NCBI GenBank assembly: GCA_963799485.1
Contig: CAWCXJ010000005.1
Span: 1 to 64,000 of the forward strand
DNA length: 64,000 nt
Source of the DNA: an uncultured Trueperaceae bacterium
Lineage (GTDB): Bacteria; Deinococcota; Deinococci; Deinococcales; Trueperaceae
Direction of reading: 5' to 3'
Below the pieces are notes generated by a model. It worked only from the letters and a program-made list of their open reading frames with translations. It searched no databases and was not told the DNA's origin. Positions 2,726 through 56,628 of the stretch are shown piece by piece. Every line of letters begins with the position of its first letter. Positions within the stretch are counted from its first letter, which is position 1. The position numbers were made by a program, and so were the translations under genes.

Positions 2726-4045
2726 TTACTGGAAAAGCGCGTTGACCTGTTCGTTGGCCTGTGTGAGGGTCGACTCGACGTCGGCGTTGTTGGTAAAAAT
2801 GTTCTCGAGGGCGTTGGTCATGATTGCGGTAATCTGTGCGCCGTAGTCGGTAATCGGGAAGAGGAAGGTGCCGTTTTCAGCGGTGGCCTCTTCGGTAAAC
2901 GGTGTTACGTCGATGCCCCGCGAGCTGTACGTTTCAATTGCTGCGTCGACACCCGACTGAATGGCGGGGAACACGACGCCCGCTGCGCCGACGATGTTCT
3001 GGCACTCCGCCGAACCCAAGAACTTGACCCATTCCCAAGCAGCGTCTTGATTCTGGCTACCGACCCAGATGGAATCGGCGAGGCCGTTAAACATGGTTTT
3101 ACGACCTTCGGGGCCGACCGGCAGTTTGGCGATGCCGACCTCGAAGGGCGAGTTCCCGGTGTATTGCCCGATCTGCCACGACCCGTCGGTGACCAGTGCG
3201 CCCTGTCCGGCTGAAAAGAGTGCGTTCGCCCCGACACCCGCAACGTCCGAGGTGAGCGGTGAGAGGCGTTTGTTGTTGACGACATCTTGAAGCCAGCTGA
3301 TGGTCTCAATTAACGCGGGGTCGTTGTAGTTGTACTGGTCGCCCCAGATACCGTTGGTGGGTACCCAGCCGTTCGACGCGGCAAAGTGGCTCCACTCGGT
3401 CTGCCCGGCGGGGGCACCTGCTCCCGGCATAATAAAGCCGTACTGCACCACTCTATCCGGGTTAAAGTCGGGCGAAAGCGCGTTATTGCCGTTGTTGTCC
3501 AGGGTCAGCTTCGAGACGACCTCCTGGAAGGTGCCGCCGTCCTGCGGATTCCACGTCCAGTCTTCCATCACAGCCGGGTCGATACCGGCGGCCTCGAACA
3601 TCGCTTTGTTATAGAACACCGCAACCGTGTCCCAGTCTTTGGGCAGACCGTAACGCCCCTCGTCTTTGGCCCAGAGCGAGGCCAGCTCACCGATGTACTG
3701 ACCTGTATCAACGCCGTCGCGCTCGACGAGCGGCTGAATATCGACGAGCTGACCGTTGGTCACGAATTCGGGGTACTTGGCAAGGTGATCGGTAAACACG
3801 TCGGGCGCAGTGCCGGAGACGAAACCGGTAGTGATGGTCGTCCAGTAGTCGTCCCAGCCGATCTGCTCGATGTTGACGCTTATGTCGGGGTTTTGCTCCT
3901 GAAAGGCCACCGCGCACTGCTGGTAAGCCGGAAGCTGGTTGGCGTCCCAGAGCATGTACTTGATCTGGGTTTGGGCGAAGGCGGCGCTGGTGGTCAGAAG
4001 CGCACCGGTTACGGTACCGAGGACGGCGAGGCGGGATAATTTCAC
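2726..4045 (-). CDS. Carbohydrate ABC transporter solute-binding protein
   Basis: Signal peptide, SBP family 1 features (GTAPDVF, YGLPKDWD, VFYNKAMF). Confidence 0.9.
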   Translation of the reverse strand: MKLSRLAVLGTVTGALLTTSAAFAQTQIKYMLWDANQLPAYQQCAVAFQEQNPDISVNIEQIGWDDYWTTITTGFVSGTAPDVFTDHLAKYPEFVTNGQLVDIQPLVERDGVDTGQYIGELASLWAKDEGRYGLPKDWDTVAVFYNKAMFEAAGIDPAVMEDWTWNPQDGGTFQEVVSKLTLDNNGNNALSPDFNPDRVVQYGFIMPGAGAPAGQTEWSHFAASNGWVPTNGIWGDQYNYNDPALIETISWLQDVVNNKRLSPLTSDVAGVGANALFSAGQGALVTDGSWQIGQYTGNSPFEVGIAKLPVGPEGRKTMFNGLADSIWVGSQNQDAAWEWVKFLGSAECQNIVGAAGVVFPAIQSGVDAAIETYSSRGIDVTPFTEEATAENGTFLFPITDYGAQITAIMTNALENIFTNNADVESTLTQANEQVNALFQ

Positions 4046-4129
4046 GAAGAACTCCTTAAGGTCGAGGCTCGAGGTACAAACTAAAGGCTAGATGGTTGAG
4101 CAAACGGTGTGTGCGGCGGTCATCACCTC

Positions 4130-5056
4130 CTATTTGAGCCCACTAAAGGCGAGCGAATCGACGATGCGGCGGCCTAGAAAGATCATCAGCAAAAAAATCG
4201 GAATGATGCTAAGAAGCGTCGCCGCCGTCAGCCCGGTCCAGTCGGGGACGCCCTGCGGCGTCTGACTGCGAAAAATCCCCAGCGCAACGGTCAAGACCCG
4301 AATGTTCTCGTCACGCCCGACCAAGAAAGGCCAGAAGTAGTCGTTCCACATGTTGATGCTGGTGAGAATGGCGAGCGTTGCCAAAGGCGTCTGGCTAATG
4401 GGCAAAACGATACGCCAGAAGATACCGAAAGGACTCGCACCGTCCAGGCGGGCGGCTTCCTCGAGCTCTACTGGCAGCGACAAAAAGAACTGCCGTAAAA
4501 AGAACACCGCAAACGGCGTCATGAGTAAGTACGGCGCGACCATCCCCTGCATCGTGTTAAGCCAACCGAGTTGCCGAACCAGCACGAAGTTAGGAATAAA
4601 GAGCACGATGCCCGGAACCATCAGCGCCGACAGGTAGAGAAAGAAAATCACGTTGCGGCCCGGAAACTTAAGCCGCGCAAACGCGTAGGCGGACATTGCC
4701 GAGAAGAAAATCTGAAAGACGACAATCAGCCCGGTAAAGACGACCGAGTTGCGTAAAAAGAGCGGGAAGTTGAGCGTCTGCCCTGAACCGCCCGAAGCGA
4801 CCATCTCGTCTAAACTGACCAGGCCCAGCGCGCGGCGAAAATTGAACAAGGTGGGGTCGGCGGGTAGCAGCGAACCGGCGGTGCTAAAGAGCGCGCGTTG
4901 GCTCGAGAGCGACGTTTTAATCACGATCCAGATGGGCAGCAGGGTAATCACGATAAGCAGGATGAGCACAACCCAAGCGACGAGCTTGCCCCAGCTGAAC
5001 CCCGGCTTTTTGCGTTCCGGTTGCGTAGATGCCGTTGTTTGAGGTTGGGCTACCAT
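4130..5056 (-). CDS. Carbohydrate ABC transporter permease (MalG-like)
   Basis: EAA motif LEEAARLDGAS; transmembrane helices. Confidence 0.92.
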   Translation of the reverse strand: MVAQPQTTASTQPERKKPGFSWGKLVAWVVLILLIVITLLPIWIVIKTSLSSQRALFSTAGSLLPADPTLFNFRRALGLVSLDEMVASGGSGQTLNFPLFLRNSVVFTGLIVVFQIFFSAMSAYAFARLKFPGRNVIFFLYLSALMVPGIVLFIPNFVLVRQLGWLNTMQGMVAPYLLMTPFAVFFLRQFFLSLPVELEEAARLDGASPFGIFWRIVLPISQTPLATLAILTSINMWNDYFWPFLVGRDENIRVLTVALGIFRSQTPQGVPDWTGLTAATLLSIIPIFLLMIFLGRRIVDSLAFSGLK

Positions 5057-31647: not shown

Positions 31648-32505
31648 TTAGTCGGGAATGTAATCGAACACATCCGGGTTCGGCCCGGTGCGGCCCTCTT
31701 CGCCTTTGTCTAGCGCCGTAATCTTGTCCACGTCGGCGGCGTCAAGCTCAAAATCGAAAATCCGGTAGTTTTCCTCAATGCGTGAGGGCGTGACCGATTT
31801 AGGGAAGATGATGTCGCCACGCTGCACGTGCCACCGTAAAACGACCTGTGCAGGCGTTTTGCCGACCTTTTCGGCAATCTGCGTAATGGTGGCGTCGTCC
31901 AAGACTTCGCCCTGGGCAATCGGCGACCACGCTTCGGTAGCGATATTGTGCTCGTGACCGTAACGGCGCACGTCGTCGTTGACGAAGTAGGGGTGAACCT
32001 CAATCTGGTTGACGGCGGGTACGGTGTTGGTTTCTTTAGCTAAGCGCTCCAAATGCTCAACTTGAAAGTTCGACACGCCGATAGACTTCGAGCGACCGTC
32101 TTTTTGGAACGCCTCGAGCGTCTGCCAGGTCGAAACATAGTCGCCGTCGTACTTCGTCGGCAGGGGCCAGTGGATCAAAAACAAATCCACGTAGTCGAAC
32201 CCGAGCTCTGAGAGCGTTTTGTCGAAAGCTTTTTTCGCGTCGTCGGGCCGGTGAAAACCGTTGTTGAGCTTGCTGGTGACAAAAATCTCACTGCGCTCCA
32301 GACCGGAAGCGCGTACCGCTTCACCGACCTCACGCTCGTTGCCGTACATCTCGGCGGTGTCGATGTGGCGGTAGCCGACCTCGAGCGCCTTGAGCACAGC
32401 CTCTACGGTATTTTCCGGTTTGATCTGAAAGACTCCGAAGCCGAGTTGCGGGATGGTGTTGCCGTCGTTTAGCGTGATGTCAGGTACATTCATCGTGGTT
32501 TGCAT
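31648..32505 (-). CDS. Aldo/keto reductase, 2,5-diketo-D-gluconate reductase A-like
   Basis: IPQLGFGVF, IDTAEMY, LIHWP, IGVSNF, FPKSVTPSRIEEN. Confidence 0.88.
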   Translation of the reverse strand: MQTTMNVPDITLNDGNTIPQLGFGVFQIKPENTVEAVLKALEVGYRHIDTAEMYGNEREVGEAVRASGLERSEIFVTSKLNNGFHRPDDAKKAFDKTLSELGFDYVDLFLIHWPLPTKYDGDYVSTWQTLEAFQKDGRSKSIGVSNFQVEHLERLAKETNTVPAVNQIEVHPYFVNDDVRRYGHEHNIATEAWSPIAQGEVLDDATITQIAEKVGKTPAQVVLRWHVQRGDIIFPKSVTPSRIEENYRIFDFELDAADVDKITALDKGEEGRTGPNPDVFDYIPD

Positions 32506-32625
32506 TGTTACAGTCCTTTCGTTATCAAGCAAGGAGTCGCTTGGTTTGTCACAAACAAACACCATATTTGCACGGTCTTTAACAAAAGAACGTCAAGCTC
32601 GCCACGGTTTGGGTTCGTAGTCGTA

Positions 32626-43909: not shown

Positions 43910-44818
43910 GTGCAAATGCAGCTGAGCGCAGCGGAAACAGCCGCGCGCCTCCCATACCCGGAACTGGCGGACGCCATCGCCACGGTGCTTCTCAAGCGTC
44001 ACGAAACGACCGCGCCGGAGCGCAGCACGCTGGCGTTGGGGTGTGGCAGTCTGCTGCTGATGCCCGCCGCAAGCCGTGAGCTGACCATCACCAAACTCGT
44101 CACCGTTCACCCGGACAACCCGGGGCGGGGTCATCCAACCGTTCAGGGCGAGGTCGTTGTGATGCGTACCGGCACCGGGGTTCGGTTGGGTATTTTAGAC
44201 GGCGTGGTTACCGAACGGCGCACGGCGGCGCTTTCACTGCTCGCAGCCAAAACGCTCGCGCCGCGTCCTGAAGGCCCGCTACTTATTTTCGGGGCCGGGG
44301 TTCAGGCGCGGGCACATTTAGAGGCGTTTCGCGTCGGTCTGGGTGTCGAACAAGTATTTATCGCCTCAAGGACGCGGGAGAAAGCCGCCGACCTCGTAAC
44401 TTTCGCGCGTTCTCTCGGGATGGACGCACATTTTACCGAAAACCCTACCAAAATTTCAGCCGACGCCTCTCTTATCGTCACCGCCACGACGAGCCGGACG
44501 CCCGTCGTGAGCGGCCCCGTCAGGCGTGACGCGTTCATCTGCGCGGTCGGGTCGTTTCAACCCGAAACCGCCGAGGTTTCAGCCGACCTTATCGGCAAAA
44601 GCCGAGTGGTCGTCGATACCTTGGAGGCTGCCCAAACCGAAGCGGGCGACCTGATTCAGGCTGTGGCGGCAGGTCGTTTGCGCTGGTCTGAGGTCGTGGG
44701 GCTCGAGACTCTCCTGACCAACGCTACCCAAGTAGACCAGCCGACCGTATTCAAGAGCGTCGGTCACGCGCTCTTCGACCTTGCGGCGGCGCATGTAGCA
44801 TTTGGCGTTTCTATCTAG
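43910..44818 (+). CDS. Ornithine cyclodeaminase/mu-crystallin family; likely delta1-pyrroline-2-carboxylate reductase
   Basis: LLMPA, KLVTV, RRTAA, GAGVQA, EAGDL, FKSVG; T3LHyp dehydratase nearby. Confidence 0.8.
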   Translation: MQMQLSAAETAARLPYPELADAIATVLLKRHETTAPERSTLALGCGSLLLMPAASRELTITKLVTVHPDNPGRGHPTVQGEVVVMRTGTGVRLGILDGVVTERRTAALSLLAAKTLAPRPEGPLLIFGAGVQARAHLEAFRVGLGVEQVFIASRTREKAADLVTFARSLGMDAHFTENPTKISADASLIVTATTSRTPVVSGPVRRDAFICAVGSFQPETAEVSADLIGKSRVVVDTLEAAQTEAGDLIQAVAAGRLRWSEVVGLETLLTNATQVDQPTVFKSVGHALFDLAAAHVAFGVSI

Positions 44819-44905
44819 AACAGCTATACCTAGAACAGCTATACTGAACACCTCGCTTTACGGCTACGCAGCGTAATGTAATAACGAACTCAGGAAGGGG
44901 CACAC

Positions 44906-45763
44906 ATGATTCCGACGCACGTTTTTGGTCGTACCGGACACGAGAGCAGCCGCACGATTTTCGGGGCTGCCGCGCTAAGCCGGGTCAGCCAAGCTGAAGC
45001 CGACCAAACGATGGAACTTTTTCTCGAGTACGGCCTCAACCATATCGACGTTGCGGCCAGTTACGGTGACGCCGAGCTGCGGTTGGCCCCGTGGCTGGGG
45101 CAGCACCGTAAAGATGTCTTTCTCGCGACCAAAACGGGTGAACGGACGTACAAGGCGGCGTATGAGCAAATCAGGCGTTCGCTCGAGCGCCTGAACGTCG
45201 AGCAAATCGACCTGATTCAGCTTCACAACCTCGTCGACCTCAGCGAGTGGGAAACGGCGCTCGGCCCCGGGGGGGCGCTGGCGGCGTGTGTAGCAGCCCG
45301 CGACGAAGGGCTGGTGCGTTTTATCGGCGTGACGGGGCACGGGCTCGAGGTCGCCGCGCGGCACAAGGCGAGCCTGGAGCGCTTCGATTTCGATTCGGTA
45401 CTCCTGCCTTACAGCTACGTTCTAATGCAAAACCCGCAGTACGCCGACGACTTTGAAGCTTTGGTCGCGTTATGCGAAAAACGGAACGTCGCGGTGCAGA
45501 CCATCAAGGCCGTGACCCGCGCACCGTGGGGCGACAGGTCGCAAACACGCGCGACCTGGTACGAACCGCTAGAAGAGCAAGCCGACATCGATACCACCGT
45601 TCACTGGGTTCTCGGAAGAGACGGATTTTTCCTCAACACGGTAGGTGATATTCACCTCTTGCCGAAAGTACTGGACGCTGCGAGCCGTTTCGACACGCGG
45701 CCCAGCGACGCCCGGATGCAGGCGGTGGTAGAAAAGCAGCAGATGTCGCCGCTTTTTACCTGA
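44906..45763 (+). CDS. Aldo/keto reductase family protein (atypical C-terminal half)
   Basis: Tetrad D48-Y53-K76-H107; IGVTGH; QTIK; TWYEP. Confidence 0.85.
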
Positions 45764-45820
45764 GCCGCGCTGTTTGTTCACCCTTTGTGATAGATAATCA
45801 GGACTCGAGGATACGACTGA

Positions 45821-46621
45821 GTGAAAGAGACTGCAGATTTAACCCCCTTTCAGGCGTGGTTCGCCGACTGCCCCGGCGCGCTCGTGGCGTTTTCGGGTGG
45901 CGTGGACAGTTCGCTGGTGGCTTTTCTGGCGCGGACGCTGCTCGGCCCGGAACGCGTCGTCGCGGTGATTTCAGCCTCACCCAGCCTGAAGCTGAGCGAC
46001 CTCGACGCTGCCAAAACCTTTTGCCTGAGCCACAACGTCCCGCTCCGGGTGATTCGCACCGCCGAACTCTCTAACCCCGACTACTACACCAACCCGGCGA
46101 ACCGCTGTTACTTTTGCAAACACACGCTCTACCGCGACCTGGACGCCTACGAAGAATTTGCAGGCTGGTGGATTTTGAACGGCACCAACCACGACGACCT
46201 GGGCGATTACCGCCCCGGTATTCAGGCCGGGAGTGAGTTCCAGGTACGCAGTCCGCTTGCCGAATGCGGGTTTGGGAAACCGGCGGTTCGGGCTTTGGCC
46301 GCCGCGCTGGGTCTCGAGTGCTGGGACAAACCCGCCAGCCCCTGCCTCAGCTCGCGCATCCCCTACGGTCAGCGCGTCACCGAACAAAAATTGCGGCAGA
46401 TCGAGGCCGGTGAACAGTTCTTAAACGAGCTGGGATTCCCGGTCGCGCGCGTTCGACATAACGACGGTCGGGCTGTCGTCGAGGTACCGGGGGAGCGGTT
46501 GGCTGACCTTGGGCGCGTCGCTGATACTGTCAGCGCACAGCTGCTGGAACTCGGGTTTCAGGCTGTAGAAATTGACCGGGAAGGTTTCGTGTCCGGTAAA
46601 CTCAACCGCGCGCTGTTGTGA
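45821..46621 (+). CDS. larE: ATP-dependent sulfur insertase for the NPN cofactor
   Basis: PP-loop SGGVDS, NRCYFCK, GDYRPG, SPCLSSRIPYG. Confidence 0.92.
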   Translation: MKETADLTPFQAWFADCPGALVAFSGGVDSSLVAFLARTLLGPERVVAVISASPSLKLSDLDAAKTFCLSHNVPLRVIRTAELSNPDYYTNPANRCYFCKHTLYRDLDAYEEFAGWWILNGTNHDDLGDYRPGIQAGSEFQVRSPLAECGFGKPAVRALAAALGLECWDKPASPCLSSRIPYGQRVTEQKLRQIEAGEQFLNELGFPVARVRHNDGRAVVEVPGERLADLGRVADTVSAQLLELGFQAVEIDREGFVSGKLNRALL

Positions 46622-47343
46622 GCGGTGCCGACAGGGACCCAAGCAACGCGCTTGACGAAGGGACGAACACAGACAACTGCGGCACAGATAGCAGCGATGT
46701 CACCCTCGACGTAACCCGCGAAGTACGGCTCGGGTTTCCCGAAGTCGTCTACGGACAGCATAAATCGCCCGCGCAGCTGAAGCGCATTTTAGCGGCGCAG
46801 CTCGAGGGCCAAAAAAACGTCCTCATCACCCGGCTCCAACCTGAAAAAGTGCCGCCGCTGCTCGAGGCCGCGCCCAACGCGCACTATCACGACGACGCGC
46901 GCACGCTAAGCGTGGTCTTTAGTCCGCCCACAGCACGACCGGGAAAAGTCGGTATCGTCTGCGCCGGAACCTCGGATATGCCGGTCGTGCGCGAAGTCGA
47001 AACCACGCTGGCGTTTTTAGGCGTCGCTACGGAAAGTTACAAAGATGTCGGGGTGGCGGGTATCGGGCGGCTGTTTAACGTCTTGCCGCAGCTTAGGGAA
47101 TGTGACGTCATCGTCTGCGCGGCAGGCTTTGAAGGGGCGCTCGCCTCGGTATTGGGCGGATTGTTGCCGCAACCCCTGATCGCCGTGCCGACCAGCGTCG
47201 GGTACGGCGTCGCAGAAGGTGGTCACACGGCTCTCAACGCGATGCTCGCCAGCTGCGCCAACGGCATTACGGTCGTCAATATCGACAACGGTTACGGCGC
47301 GGCCCTCGCCGCGTTCAGAATTTTGCAAAGGATGTTCAGGTGA
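46618..47343 (+). CDS. larB: NaAD carboxylase/hydrolase for the NPN cofactor
   Basis: GFPEVVYGQHK, AGTSD, DVGVAG, PTSVGYG, VVNIDNGYGAA. Confidence 0.93.
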   Translation: MSGADRDPSNALDEGTNTDNCGTDSSDVTLDVTREVRLGFPEVVYGQHKSPAQLKRILAAQLEGQKNVLITRLQPEKVPPLLEAAPNAHYHDDARTLSVVFSPPTARPGKVGIVCAGTSDMPVVREVETTLAFLGVATESYKDVGVAGIGRLFNVLPQLRECDVIVCAAGFEGALASVLGGLLPQPLIAVPTSVGYGVAEGGHTALNAMLASCANGITVVNIDNGYGAALAAFRILQRMFR

Positions 47344-48542
47344 CCGACACGCACATGAAAAACAAACAAACCGTGCTCAAAATCGAACCCTTTTCGGGCC
47401 TCAGCGGGGACATGTTTCTGGGTGCCCTGGTCGAGCTTACGGGCGGCGCGGACAAGTTGCGCGCGCTGCCCGAACAGCTCAACTTGCCCGAAGCCGAAAT
47501 CGACGTCGCGCGCGTCTCGAAGTGCAGCATCGATTGTCTCAAGGTCACCGTAAAAGACCGCTCGCCGGAGGCTGAGCGACCGCACCGGCACCTTAAAGAT
47601 ATCCACAACCTTCTCGACGCCTCGAGCTTAACTAACCGGGTGAAAGCGAGAACCAAAGACATCTTTCAGCTTTTAGCGGAGGCCGAAGCCGCCGTTCACG
47701 GGGTCGGCCTCGAGCGGGTGCATTTTCACGAAGTGGGGGCGGTCGATTCGGTGGTCGATATTACCGGCGTGGCGCTGCTGCTCGGCGACCTTACGTTTAC
47801 GCACGTCTACTGCGACCCCATCTGTACGGGTTACGGGTTTGTCAAAACCGACCACGGCAGGCTGCCCGTCCCGGCCCCTGCCACGCAGAGACTCCTTCAC
47901 GGCATGCCGACCTACAAAGGCCGAACCGCCTCGGAGCTGATTACGCCTACCGGCGCGGCTATCTTACGGTTTCTGAAACCCGACTTCAGCGACCCTGTTT
48001 TGTCGTTGCAGCGGAGTGCCTACGGTGCAGGTTCTAAAGACTTCGAGCACCCCAACTGCGTGCGAATCAGTATGGGCGAAACGGGGGAGACCGGGCCAAA
48101 CGACGCGCCTGACGCGACCCACACCCTGATTCAAACGAACATCGACGACATGCCCGCCGAACAGCTCGGCGCGGATTTTCAGAGGCTCCTGCTTGAAAGC
48201 GGCGCACTCGACGTTTACCTGACCCCTACGCTGATGAAAAAGTCTCGTCCAGGGCTGAAACTCGAGGTACTTTGCCGCCAAGCCGACGCCGAGCGCCTCG
48301 CCGAGCTGGTGCTCGAGTACACCACGACGCTGGGGGTACGGTTTCTGCCCTGCCGCCGTAAAGAACTGGCGCGTACCGTAACCCCGGTCACGACGCCGTT
48401 CGGTGAAATCAGTGTCAAAACCGCCACCTTGCCGTCGGGCAAGCTCCGGCACAAACCGGAATACGAGGCGTGTCAGGCTGCCGCACGAAAACACCGGGTC
48501 GCGGCGTCTGAAGTGGTGCTCGAGACCTTGAAGTGCCTGTGA
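47340..48542 (+). CDS. larC: Nickel insertase (cyclometallase) for the NPN cofactor
   Basis: GLSGDMFLGAL, VHFHEVGAVDS, HGRLPVPAPAT, TPTGAA, NIDD, MKKSRPG, TTLGVR, KPEYE; start may be ATG 47355. Confidence 0.93.
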   Translation: MTDTHMKNKQTVLKIEPFSGLSGDMFLGALVELTGGADKLRALPEQLNLPEAEIDVARVSKCSIDCLKVTVKDRSPEAERPHRHLKDIHNLLDASSLTNRVKARTKDIFQLLAEAEAAVHGVGLERVHFHEVGAVDSVVDITGVALLLGDLTFTHVYCDPICTGYGFVKTDHGRLPVPAPATQRLLHGMPTYKGRTASELITPTGAAILRFLKPDFSDPVLSLQRSAYGAGSKDFEHPNCVRISMGETGETGPNDAPDATHTLIQTNIDDMPAEQLGADFQRLLLESGALDVYLTPTLMKKSRPGLKLEVLCRQADAERLAELVLEYTTTLGVRFLPCRRKELARTVTPVTTPFGEISVKTATLPSGKLRHKPEYEACQAAARKHRVAASEVVLETLKCL

Positions 48543-48761
48543 AGTGCCTGTAAAAATGGCTGTCGCCATCAAGTTGTCGCGTGCAGCACCACGGTGAAAA
48601 ACAGGGGTCAAGGCAACGGTAGCGGCGACGCGCGACGCATCGGCGTTTAGGAGCGGACCGTTGATGTGGCACTAGCGGATAGTGAAGACGCGCGCAGGCA
48701 CAGCGTTGCAAAGTGATTTTCTGTAACGGTCGGCGTTTTGGTGGTTGAGCCGGTGTCCGAA

Positions 48762-49796
48762 CTATCTGAGAAAAAACCCCGCCCCTACCGGGTCGTCCGG
48801 GTCGATAACCCACTGATTGAAGCCGGTGATGGCTGCGCTGCCACTCACTTCCGGAATTACGGCGTCAAACGCACCGACTTTGGTGTGTCCGACCACGCGT
48901 CCCGTAAAAATCGTGCCGATGATGCTCTCGTTGACGAGCACCTCATTTTCTTTAAGCTGGCCCCTGGCGTAAAGCTGCGCGACCCGTCCGGCGGTACCGG
49001 TTCCGGTCGGTGAGCGGTCTACTTCGCGGTCGGCGAAGATGCAGACGTTCGCCTGCGTTGAGTCCCGGTTTTGCGGCGGCCCAGCTATGATGGTGCCGTA
49101 AAGCGCTCTGAGTTCGGGGACGAGCGGATGCTGAATTGTGGCCTCGGCGCTCACGGCTTTTTTAACCTCGTCACCCAAAACGGTGAGCAGGCGGTAGTTT
49201 TCGGGGCCGACGGCAAGCCCGACCTGCGCGCCGTCCAGATACGCGTAAAACGCGCCGCCGAAAGCGATATCGACCGTCACCGGACCGAACGAAGGTGTGT
49301 GAACCGTCAAATCTTGCTTATAAAGAAATGAGGGAACGTTGTTAAACCGCACCCGACCGACTTTAAGACCGTCCCACGCGGCAAACGCCTCGATAAACCC
49401 GGCAGGCGAATCGATCCCGATGCGGGTTTCCGGTTCGTTGACCTTAACCAAGCCCTGCGCGACGGCGACTGTGGCAAGCGCGATGACGCCGTGCCCGCAC
49501 ATATCCGAGTAGCCTTCGTTGTGCATAAAGATGACGCCTAGGTCGGCTGCTTGTGTAACCGGCTCGGTAAGGTAAGCGCCGTACATGTCGGCGTGGCCCC
49601 TGGGCTCCCACATCAGCGCCTTACGCACGTCGTCCAGGTTTTCGTTGACCCAGCGGCGTTTTTCCAGAACTGTGTGACCGGGGATTCGCGGAATACCGGC
49701 GGTAACGATGCGGAGCGGTTCGCCTGCGGTGTGAGTATCGACGGTGGTGTAGGTGCGGCTGAAGTTCATCTCTTGCCTCCGGTTACGCTGGGCCAA
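48762..49796 (-). CDS. Proline racemase family, Cys/Thr type; likely trans-3-hydroxy-L-proline dehydratase
   Basis: HTAGEPLR, EPRGHADMYG, MCGH, DRSPTGTG (Thr instead of the second Cys); true start probably the second Met (MNFSR). Confidence 0.85.
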   Translation of the reverse strand: MAQRNRRQEMNFSRTYTTVDTHTAGEPLRIVTAGIPRIPGHTVLEKRRWVNENLDDVRKALMWEPRGHADMYGAYLTEPVTQAADLGVIFMHNEGYSDMCGHGVIALATVAVAQGLVKVNEPETRIGIDSPAGFIEAFAAWDGLKVGRVRFNNVPSFLYKQDLTVHTPSFGPVTVDIAFGGAFYAYLDGAQVGLAVGPENYRLLTVLGDEVKKAVSAEATIQHPLVPELRALYGTIIAGPPQNRDSTQANVCIFADREVDRSPTGTGTAGRVAQLYARGQLKENEVLVNESIIGTIFTGRVVGHTKVGAFDAVIPEVSGSAAITGFNQWVIDPDDPVGAGFFLR

Positions 49797-55348: not shown

Positions 55349-56628
55349 ATGCTCGATCTACGGCTTATCCGCGACAACCCCGAGGCAGTGCGGCGCGCGG
55401 TTCGCGCCAAACAGCTGCCGAACGTACTGGGAACACTCGACCAGGTAATTTTGCTCGACGAAGAAAACCGGCTTTTACGGAGCGACTTGGAAGCCAAGCA
55501 AGCGACGCGCAACGCCAGCAGTAAAGAGATCGGGCTGCGTAAAAGACGGGGTGAAAACGCCGACGACCTCATCCGCGAGATGGGGACGGTCAGCGAAGAG
55601 GTCAAGCGCTTGGAGGAAAAGAGCCGCAGCTTGGACGCACAATTAAACGCCTTGTTGCTCGAGCTGCCCAACTTGCCCGACGAGAGCGTCCCCTACGGCG
55701 AATCCGAACACGACAATCAGGTGGCCTTTGAGCGCGGCAGCAAACCCGAGTTCGACTTCGAGCCGAAACCGCACTGGGAGCTCGCTTCTGAGCGCGGCTG
55801 GCTCGACCTTACGGCGGGCGTCAAAACGAGCGGGGCCGGGTTTCCCATCTTTAAGGGCGTCGGCGCACGGTTTTTGCGTTCGCTGGTGCAGTATTGCCTC
55901 AACGCGGTGGTGGACGCGGGCTATACCGAAGTCACGGTACCGCTTTTAGTCACGCCCGAGAGCGCGAGCGCGACCGGACATCTGCCCGACAAAGAGGGGC
56001 AGATGTACAGCGTCACCGACGGGTTTTATATCATCCCCACCTCGGAACTCGTGCTGACCGGCATGCACCGGGATGAGATTTTGGACGCGGCGGCGTTGCC
56101 GCTCAAATATACGGCGGCGAGCGCCTGTTTGCGCCGCGAGGCGGGAAGTTACGGCGCACACGTGCGCGGCATCAACCGCGCCCATCAGTTCGACAAGGTA
56201 GAGATGGTGCAGTTTACCAGCCCGAAGACTCTTACGCGGCGATGGAAGAGATGACGGCGCTCTCCGAAGGGCTATTAGACGCGCTGGGTCTCCCTTACCG
56301 CAGGCTCGACATGTGTACCGGCGACATCGGCTTTACCCAGGCAAAAAAGTACGATTTGGAGGTTTGGAGCGCGGGGCAGGGGCGGTGGCTCGAGGTCTCT
56401 TCAGTCTCCAACATCACCGACTTTCAGGCGCGGCGACTGCAAACCCGCTTTCGTGAGGGCGGTGCGCAGGGCAAGGGCAAAACCGAGTTGGTGCATACGC
56501 TTAACGGCAGCGCGTTCGGCATGCTCCGGATGGTAGCGGCGCTGTTCGAGCACTATCAGGAGGCGGACGGCAGCGTCGTCGTGCCGGAGGTGTTACGGCC
56601 CCTTGTGGGTAGGGAGAGGCTCGAGTAA
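55349..56628 (+). CDS. serS: Serine--tRNA ligase, frameshifted near 56222
   Basis: MLDLRLIR, PTSE, RREAGS, HQFDKVEMV in the first ORF; KKYDLEVW, EVSSVSN, HTLNGS in the second; one extra C in AGCCC restores TSPEDSYAAMEEM. Confidence 0.93.

Follow-up and report, generated by a model that had tools for sequence, protein, structure and literature searches.

Which enzyme does a nickel-pincer cofactor cassette serve when no gene for LarA lies beside it? The question is raised by a locus of an uncultured Trueperaceae bacterium (assembly GCA_963799485.1, contig CAWCXJ010000005.1, positions 1 to 64,000; this 64-kb stretch, analysed as a whole, is referred to below as the window), where larE, larB and larC stand directly behind the gene of an atypical aldo/keto reductase (AKR; 44906-45763, + strand, 285 residues). 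An earlier note on this DNA had described the AKR gene as lying 57 bp upstream of an intact larE-larB-larC set on the same strand, and both the coordinates and the NCBIfam cut-offs agree with that description. It had further proposed that the AKR may bind the nickel-pincer nucleotide (NPN) instead of NADP(H) and function as a hydride transferase or epimerase, His145 and Lys201 being the candidate ligands. Comparisons of sequence and predicted structure make it highly probable that the gene encodes an enzyme of the NphT family, bearing the nickel-pincer mononucleotide (NPN/NPMN) in place of NAD(P)(H) and supplied with it by the downstream larEBC genes. Behind the pipeline label 'aldo/keto reductase' most likely stands a nickel enzyme, and the adjoining lar cassette gains an identified client.

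A probable aldo/keto reductase of the NphT kind

NphT of Alicyclobacillus cellulosilyticus was found by mining genes that adjoin larB, larC and larE in clusters without LarA, and its structure with bound NPMN is available as 9YEB (Semersky et al., Nat Chem, 17 June 2026, PMC13524815). The protein takes up the nickel-pincer mononucleotide covalently, with a mass gain of 450 Da; Lys200 is the covalent tether, the K200A exchange abolishing loading, and His144 coordinates the nickel (PMC13524815). Further contacts with the cofactor are made by T142, I199, W218 and Y219 and by the backbone of A20, A21 and G248. Activity requires the AKR tetrad D47/Y52/K75/H106 as well as NPMN, no product being formed with NAD+, NADP+, NADH or NADPH, and consists in moving hydride between sugar or aldehyde molecules. 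The same paper counts 427 co-occurrences of AKR and larBCE genes and 798 homologues with the His/Lys motif (PMC13524815).

When the window AKR was compared with the chains of the PDB using phmmer, a single match stood out, 9yeb_A ('Oxidoreductase', 291 residues), which aligned over residues 4-264 with an E-value of 8e-76 and 258 bits. Identical residues occupy 122 of the 261 aligned positions (~47% identity). The runner-up, an L-galactose dehydrogenase, reached an E-value of 1e-10, and all other chains were at 1e-10 or weaker. After correction for two one-residue gaps in the phmmer alignment, the NphT tetrad D47, Y52, K75 and H106 corresponds to D48, Y53, K76 and H107 of the window AKR, while the nickel ligand H144 (ITGH) and the tether K200 (TIK) correspond to H145 (IGVTGH) and K201 (QTIK). 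All six residues were confirmed in the translated gene, at the positions that the earlier note had assigned to them. The remaining contacts map as T142 to T143, I199 to I200, W218 to W218 and Y219 to Y219, and those of the backbone as A20 to A21, A21 to A22 and G248 to G247.

These positions are also retained among relatives. We collected orthologues of the AKR from 80 loci of other genomes, which are 56-85% identical to it and come from many phyla. None of the 80 orthologues differs at D48, Y53, K76, H107, T143, H145, I200, K201, W218, Y219 or A22, position 21 is alanine in 73 of them, and G247 is conserved to at least 90% in an alignment of 34 sequences.

The fold is that of an AKR. An AlphaFold2 model built on the 34-sequence alignment shows the TIM barrel of this family, with a predicted local distance difference test score (pLDDT) of 95.8, and the top Foldseek matches in the PDB were all AKRs (probability 1.00, template modelling score ~0.7, ~20% identity); as the PDB copy used by Foldseek ends on 2026-04-08 and does not hold 9YEB, this result speaks to the AKR fold only. 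Pfam PF00248 was matched with an E-value of 7e-23 over residues 18-202, corresponding to profile positions 3-191 of 291, so that the C-terminal third of the protein is unmatched by the AKR profile. No Lar_N match to the window AKR was obtained with Pfam. Conventional AKRs share the fold and the Asp/Tyr/Lys/His tetrad with the window AKR, which differs from them by its His/Lys pair, by matching two thirds of the profile and by lacking the GVSNF and PKS...RIEEN cofactor segments. The absence of these NADP segments, already remarked upon in the earlier note, was evident from comparison with the ordinary AKR of the window (31648-32565, - strand), which has both SIGVSNF and PKSVTPSRIEEN. The unmatched C-terminal third and the missing NADP segments are indirect signs that may point to the shortened cofactor cavity of the NphT family, in which the AMP half of NAD(P) finds no space.

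The window AKR resembles NphT, a protein of about 290 residues, in its AKR TIM barrel, its tetrad, its His/Lys motifs and its cofactor-contact residues, as well as in adjoining larB, larC and larE, in having no signal peptide and in having no LarA nearby. It differs in its origin (Deinococcota, Trueperaceae, whereas NphT comes from Bacillota) and in about half of its aligned residues, and the sugar-metabolism neighbours of NphT are absent from the window locus, which sits between hydroxyproline-pathway genes. Another difference from NphT as described is that the genome of the window AKR also has a LarA homologue. At ~47% identity, we infer from the alignment that the properties of NphT, namely covalent loading, independence of NAD(P) and hydride shuttling, would carry over to the window AKR.

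As for family membership, the window AKR is one of an already-known kind. The proposal of a nickel-pincer AKR, with its two ligands and its hydride transfer, is supported by the homologue NphT, and the pairing, which the earlier note had allowed might be published, is in print (PMC13524815). The idea is no longer new, since the NphT kind was published in June 2026; a reading of the sequence alone had recovered a discovery some months old, including both ligand residues.

The larEBC cassette and its linkage to the AKR

The AKR gene, preceded by a Shine-Dalgarno-like AGGAAGGGG 5' of its ATG, is followed head to tail by three genes, all on the + strand. They encode LarE, an ATP-dependent sulfur insertase (45821-46621; NCBIfam TIGR00268, 273 bits, cut-off 150); LarB, a carboxylase/hydrolase of nicotinic acid adenine dinucleotide (NaAD) (46618-47343; NF033503, 264.5 bits, cut-off 175, residues 30-237); and LarC, a CTP-dependent nickel insertase in which LarC1 and LarC2 are fused (47340-48542). 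LarC matched Pfam PF01969 over 2-374 of its 375 profile positions (E-value 2.9e-124) and passed the NCBIfam cut-offs for both LarC1 (200.6 bits, cut-off 90) and LarC2 (139 bits, cut-off 50), so that all three proteins lie above equivalog cut-offs. The overlapping stop and start codons reported in the earlier note, each of 4 nt, are present if the longest open reading frames (ORFs) are the real ones; because LarB follows its profile from residue 30 onwards and LarC its Pfam profile from residue 14, the true starts of larB and larC may lie further downstream. We infer that the AKR, larE, larB and larC genes are co-transcribed.

LarE carries the PP-loop motif SGGVDS at residues 25-30 and the CXXC-C cysteines C96, C99 and C175. 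Since such a cysteine set marks the [4Fe-4S], non-sacrificial type of LarE (PMC9283937), the protein probably uses an iron-sulfur cluster and would not be consumed as a sulfur donor. A Pfam search of 45 further ORFs of the window found no nickel transporter.

In the mechanism that we propose, LarB would carboxylate and hydrolyse NaAD, LarE would insert two sulfurs, probably via its iron-sulfur cluster of the CXXC-C type, and LarC would insert the nickel. The finished cofactor would be tethered to Lys201 of the AKR as a thioamide, with His145 completing the coordination of the metal. The AKR tetrad would then move the proton, Tyr53 acting as acid/base together with Asp48, Lys76 and His107, and hydride would pass to or from the pincer ring. 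The net result would be a cytoplasmic enzyme that needs no diffusible nicotinamide cofactor to pass hydride back and forth between carbonyls and alcohols.

The adjacency of AKR and lar genes recurs in other genomes. In three further genera of Trueperaceae (G087, G157 and G189), AKR, larC, larE and larB are contiguous. Among the 80 orthologue loci, for which the neighbourhood was taken as 6 kb, larE/B/C was found near the AKR in five (L011, L052, L054, L069 and L078), in differing gene orders and phyla. Neighbourhood ORFs came from a caller filtered on GC content at third codon positions, and some genes were merged or split, for example at L069 and L063. The synteny of the AKR clade with larBCE, which the earlier note had suggested checking, is thereby borne out for these five loci and three genera; most of the remaining loci are considered below.

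A remnant of the same arrangement was found in the sister genome G081. It has an intact AKR orthologue, 87% identical to the window AKR, at another locus, and directly 3' of this gene (L083, 4088-4266) a piece of larE that covers residues 7-29 and is broken by an in-frame stop is joined to a frameshifted piece of larB (approximately residues 124-160). These fragments are a lar cassette in decay. As G081 keeps lar remnants behind its AKR, the adjacency is older than the split between G081 and the window genome.

LarA homologues also occur next to the AKR. Matches in tblastn were obtained at six of the 80 loci (L026, L029, L052, L054, L063 and L069); Pfam confirmed Lar_N in L026, L029, L052 and L054, for L063 the evidence is the tblastn match, and the L069 ORF that covers the matching stretch has an AKR match only. 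In two gammaproteobacterial loci (L052 4650-8272 and L054 4463-8213) and one from Chloroflexia (L029 4589-6855), the LarA homologue immediately precedes the AKR in the same orientation. By its design, the published pipeline, which mined clusters without LarA (PMC13524815), would have excluded such LarA-AKR clusters. A pathway shared by LarA and an NphT-type AKR is conceivable, since hydrolysis of the aldonolactones formed by NphT would yield 2-hydroxy acids, the class of compounds on which LarA-type epimerases act. In L052 and L054, the AKR is followed by a protein with a weak Lar_N match, the L052 copy of which also matches DUF362 weakly. The actinomycete locus L069 holds an IS605 OrfB/Cas12f-like (TnpB-type) gene (3229-4458) between larCBE and the AKR region.

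Clients and cofactor biosynthesis in Trueperaceae

Searching the whole 3.66-Mb genome of the window (G000) for Lar_N gave one match, on contig C13, and none on the window's own contig. The statement in the earlier note that LarA is missing thus holds for the 64-kb window and fails for the genome, in line with its own caveat that larA could be elsewhere. The C13 gene is a GntE2-type LarA homologue (positions 811-2115 of locus L001, which spans 163083-166568 of C13). It reached 77 bits against Pfam Lar_N (cut-off 23.3) and aligned with 4nar_A over residues 26-430 with an E-value of 1.4e-60; its true start is probably Met13. Four of its segments, GTHQ, PHEV, GFSGGAK and STHW, align with the corresponding segments of LarA and presumably hold the counterparts of LarA H108, H174, K184 and H200, namely two catalytic histidines, the cofactor lysine and the nickel-binding histidine. 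Of these residues, H108 and H174 are named in PMC11770544, and 4NAR is the structure of GntE2, a D-gluconate 2-epimerase from Thermotoga maritima that depends on NPN (PMC7583248). The C13 gene belongs to a cluster of the hexuronate/gluconate type, alongside UxaE (tagaturonate epimerase), a short-chain dehydrogenase and a small gene that resembles sugar kinases.

Because a LarA-family gene is present on C13, larEBC probably has two clients, and would supply the GntE2-type homologue in addition to the AKR. LarA and GntE2 share with the window AKR, as proposed here, the cofactor itself, the lysine thioamide, the His-Ni bond and the supply by LarB, LarE and LarC. Their fold is unrelated to that of the AKR, and LarA enzymes act within a single molecule, as racemases or epimerases of 2-hydroxy acids, whereas NphT transfers hydride between molecules.

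To see how clients and biosynthesis are distributed, we took a census of 128 Trueperaceae genomes, including one flagged as unpublished (G190). The AKR orthologue is present in 61 of them and Lar_N matches in 96, while LarC is found in seven; LarB is found in the same seven and in none outside the LarC-bearing set. AKR and LarC occur together in six genomes (G000, G084, G155, G157, G189 and G087). Genomes with clients and no larB, larC or larE include G081, G088, G127-G130 and G158, with loci L083, L004-L006 and L091-L095.

Several of our observations weigh against the reading of the window AKR as an NphT-family enzyme fed by its neighbouring cassette. LarC is missing from 55 of the 61 AKR-bearing Trueperaceae genomes, including genomes that are 96-100% complete in 1-9 contigs, and from 34 of the 39 AKR-bearing genomes with a completeness of 90% or more and a contamination of 5% or less; the near-complete genomes G081, G088, G128, G130 and G158 also have no LarE above cut-off. 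Within one lar-less genus, the AKR is intact and under constraint, with a ratio of nonsynonymous to synonymous substitution rates (dN/dS) of 0.06-0.10 at a dS of 0.25-0.41. As lar-less orthologues are intact and constrained, a strict dependence on a home-made cofactor cannot hold clade-wide. Synteny also failed at 72 of the 80 orthologue loci, which have no lar-family gene within 6 kb and include the closest relatives (L003-L006), and LarC is missing from 21 of the 80 orthologue-bearing genomes. The LarA-family client on C13 could by itself justify the larEBC cassette, the identity of the window AKR to NphT in the alignment is only ~47%, and no signal above the expectation from shuffled sequences marks out the operon, either among promoter-like sites (2 against 1.0 expected) or among terminator-like sites (9 against 7.5).

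Most of these points also bear on the strongest alternative, that of a conventional or cofactor-flexible oxidoreductase with no need of the nickel-pincer cofactor. Under it, the His/Lys pair of the AKR would hold a different ligand, and larEBC would exist for the GntE2-type LarA homologue on C13. The existence of that gene, with its E-value of 1.4e-60 to 4nar_A, favours this explanation, as do the 55 AKR-bearing family genomes without LarC and the low dN/dS in the lar-less genus. So does the retention of every cofactor residue and of the His/Lys motif in all 21 orthologues from LarC-less genomes among the 80 loci; at least nine of these 21 genomes carry Deinococcota or Trueperaceae in their titles. 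We nevertheless consider it unlikely. NphT, which has the same motif, is inactive with NAD(P)(H) and needs NPMN (PMC13524815), and in this locus, as in G087, G157 and G189, the gene that adjoins larEBC or its counterparts is that of the AKR and not that of the LarA homologue. Moreover, Lar_N is found in 96 of the 128 genomes, and the GntE2-type homologue was intact, with its motif, in five of five lar-less genomes checked. Being equally common in lar-less relatives, this homologue is no better an explanation for the cassette than the AKR. The earlier note had named a larA elsewhere that accounts for the cassette as a reason to give up its proposal; to the letter, such a gene exists, and the independent evidence on the AKR stands.

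The mismatch is one between clients and biosynthesis. Outside Trueperaceae, the co-occurrence of AKR and LarC is closer to expectation; of the 80 orthologue-bearing genomes, 59 have LarC. In Trueperaceae, two unrelated client families, the NphT-type AKR and the GntE2-type LarA homologue, are widespread and intact in genomes that lack larB, larC and larE, and keep their cofactor-binding residues under strong purifying selection. A tentative explanation is that Trueperaceae are largely auxotrophic for the nickel-pincer cofactor and obtain it, or one of its late precursors, from other members of the community that make it, or else that the same His/Lys pocket takes another ligand. With cross-feeding, the window genome may be an example of a rare producer. 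Most of the Trueperaceae orthologues lie in genomes without lar genes, and clients without biosynthesis are not discussed in the Results and Discussion of the NphT paper; salvage, uptake and auxotrophs go unmentioned in its main text, and neither Truepera nor Deinococc- appears in 12 of its 17 supplementary files (PMC13524815).

We regard this mismatch as the part worth following up and as the wider point of the locus. If the orphan enzymes are active, either a labile organometallic cofactor is shared between cells or the pocket is less specific than the work on NphT suggests. Either outcome would alter the genome-based prediction of nickel-pincer enzymes, since the pipelines now in use demand that a candidate adjoin larBCE.

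The hydroxyproline locus and other neighbours

The AKR and larEBC genes form a block of 3.95 kb (44816-48761) that is absent between the same flanks in two genomes of the same genus, G085 and G081, as a DNA search of relatives revealed. On the left, 87 bp upstream of the AKR and on the same strand, lies a gene of the ornithine cyclodeaminase/mu-crystallin family (43910-44818, +), most likely a delta1-pyrroline-2-carboxylate (Pyr2C) reductase (NCBIfam NF005603, 327 bits, cut-off 266), together with a LacI-family regulator that is also upstream. On the right lies a gene for trans-3-hydroxy-L-proline dehydratase (48762-49796, - strand; NF045511, 568 bits, cut-off 540). Homology to G085 breaks off at window position 44815 and sets in again at 48762. 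The reductase and dehydratase genes abut in both same-genus genomes that have the pair, G085 and G081, with a gap of 14 bp in G085, and neither genome has larB or larC beyond the remnants in G081 described above. Since the two genes abut there, we regard the AKR-larEBC block as an insertion into an unrelated hydroxyproline locus.

Both edges of the block show short repeats. At the left edge, a perfect 15-bp tandem duplication (CTAGAACAGCTATAC x2; 44815-44844, +) begins at the stop codon of the upstream gene and could be an operator or a junction scar. Near the right end, a perfect 11-bp tandem duplication (GAAGTGCCTGT x2; 48530-48551) runs across the larC stop codon.

The upstream gene offers a second alternative, namely that it, instead of the AKR or alongside it, is a nickel-pincer client that uses the adenine-dinucleotide variant NPAD. 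Its position 87 bp from the AKR invites the comparison, as an NPAD-dependent ornithine cyclodeaminase, a client other than LarA and of the same superfamily, was found through its adjacency to LarE (Desguin 2025, Int J Biol Macromol 330:147799, as described in PMC13524815). This alternative is very improbable. Unlike that enzyme, the upstream protein resembles an ordinary Pyr2C reductase, whose gene the insertion has parted from that of the partner dehydratase: its score lies above the NCBIfam cut-off for Pyr2C reductases, its best PDB relatives are ketimine and Pyr2C reductases, and it keeps the GAGVQA dinucleotide-binding motif. The same gene abuts the dehydratase directly in G085, where its product is 79% identical, and in G081, both without larB and larC. 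Reductase and dehydratase make up a complete two-step route from trans-3-hydroxyproline to proline, and the gene is most simply the reductase of that pathway, not an NPAD-dependent enzyme.

That the adjacency of AKR and lar genes is a by-product of rearrangement with no functional meaning is the least credible explanation. In its favour, the block lies between two genes that belong to an unrelated pathway and adjoin each other in G085 and G081, and orthologue neighbourhoods are highly variable. Against it, AKR and lar genes move jointly, as the remnants right behind the AKR at another locus of G081 show, and lar-family genes lie near the orthologue in eight of 80 loci from several phyla and in varied order. 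Taking a cassette of 3 kb and a genome of 4-5 Mb, the chance expectation is estimated at far less than 1% per locus, and 427 AKR-larBCE co-occurrences are on record (PMC13524815).

No conserved neighbour that would indicate a substrate of the NphT-type AKR was found among 81 loci (the 80 orthologue loci and the window). The commonest neighbours, in 14 of the 81, were unrelated ATP-binding cassette (ABC) ATPases, those with annotation being of branched-chain amino-acid and phosphonate types, and phosphotransferase-family kinases lie near the orthologue in two loci. A second, canonical AKR of about 320-350 residues was found within 6 kb in 14 of the 81 loci (for example L003 4641-5648, L015 4818-5825 and L078 1775-2800), and the four copies scanned all matched the whole Pfam profile. 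By a rough estimate, such a second AKR stands near the NphT-type AKR more often than expected by chance.

Elsewhere in the window, seryl-tRNA synthetase appears as two overlapping ORFs, the first covering the N-terminal domain and the initial part of the class II core (55349-56254) and the second the remaining core (56242-56628), a split that suggests a frameshift or an assembly error.

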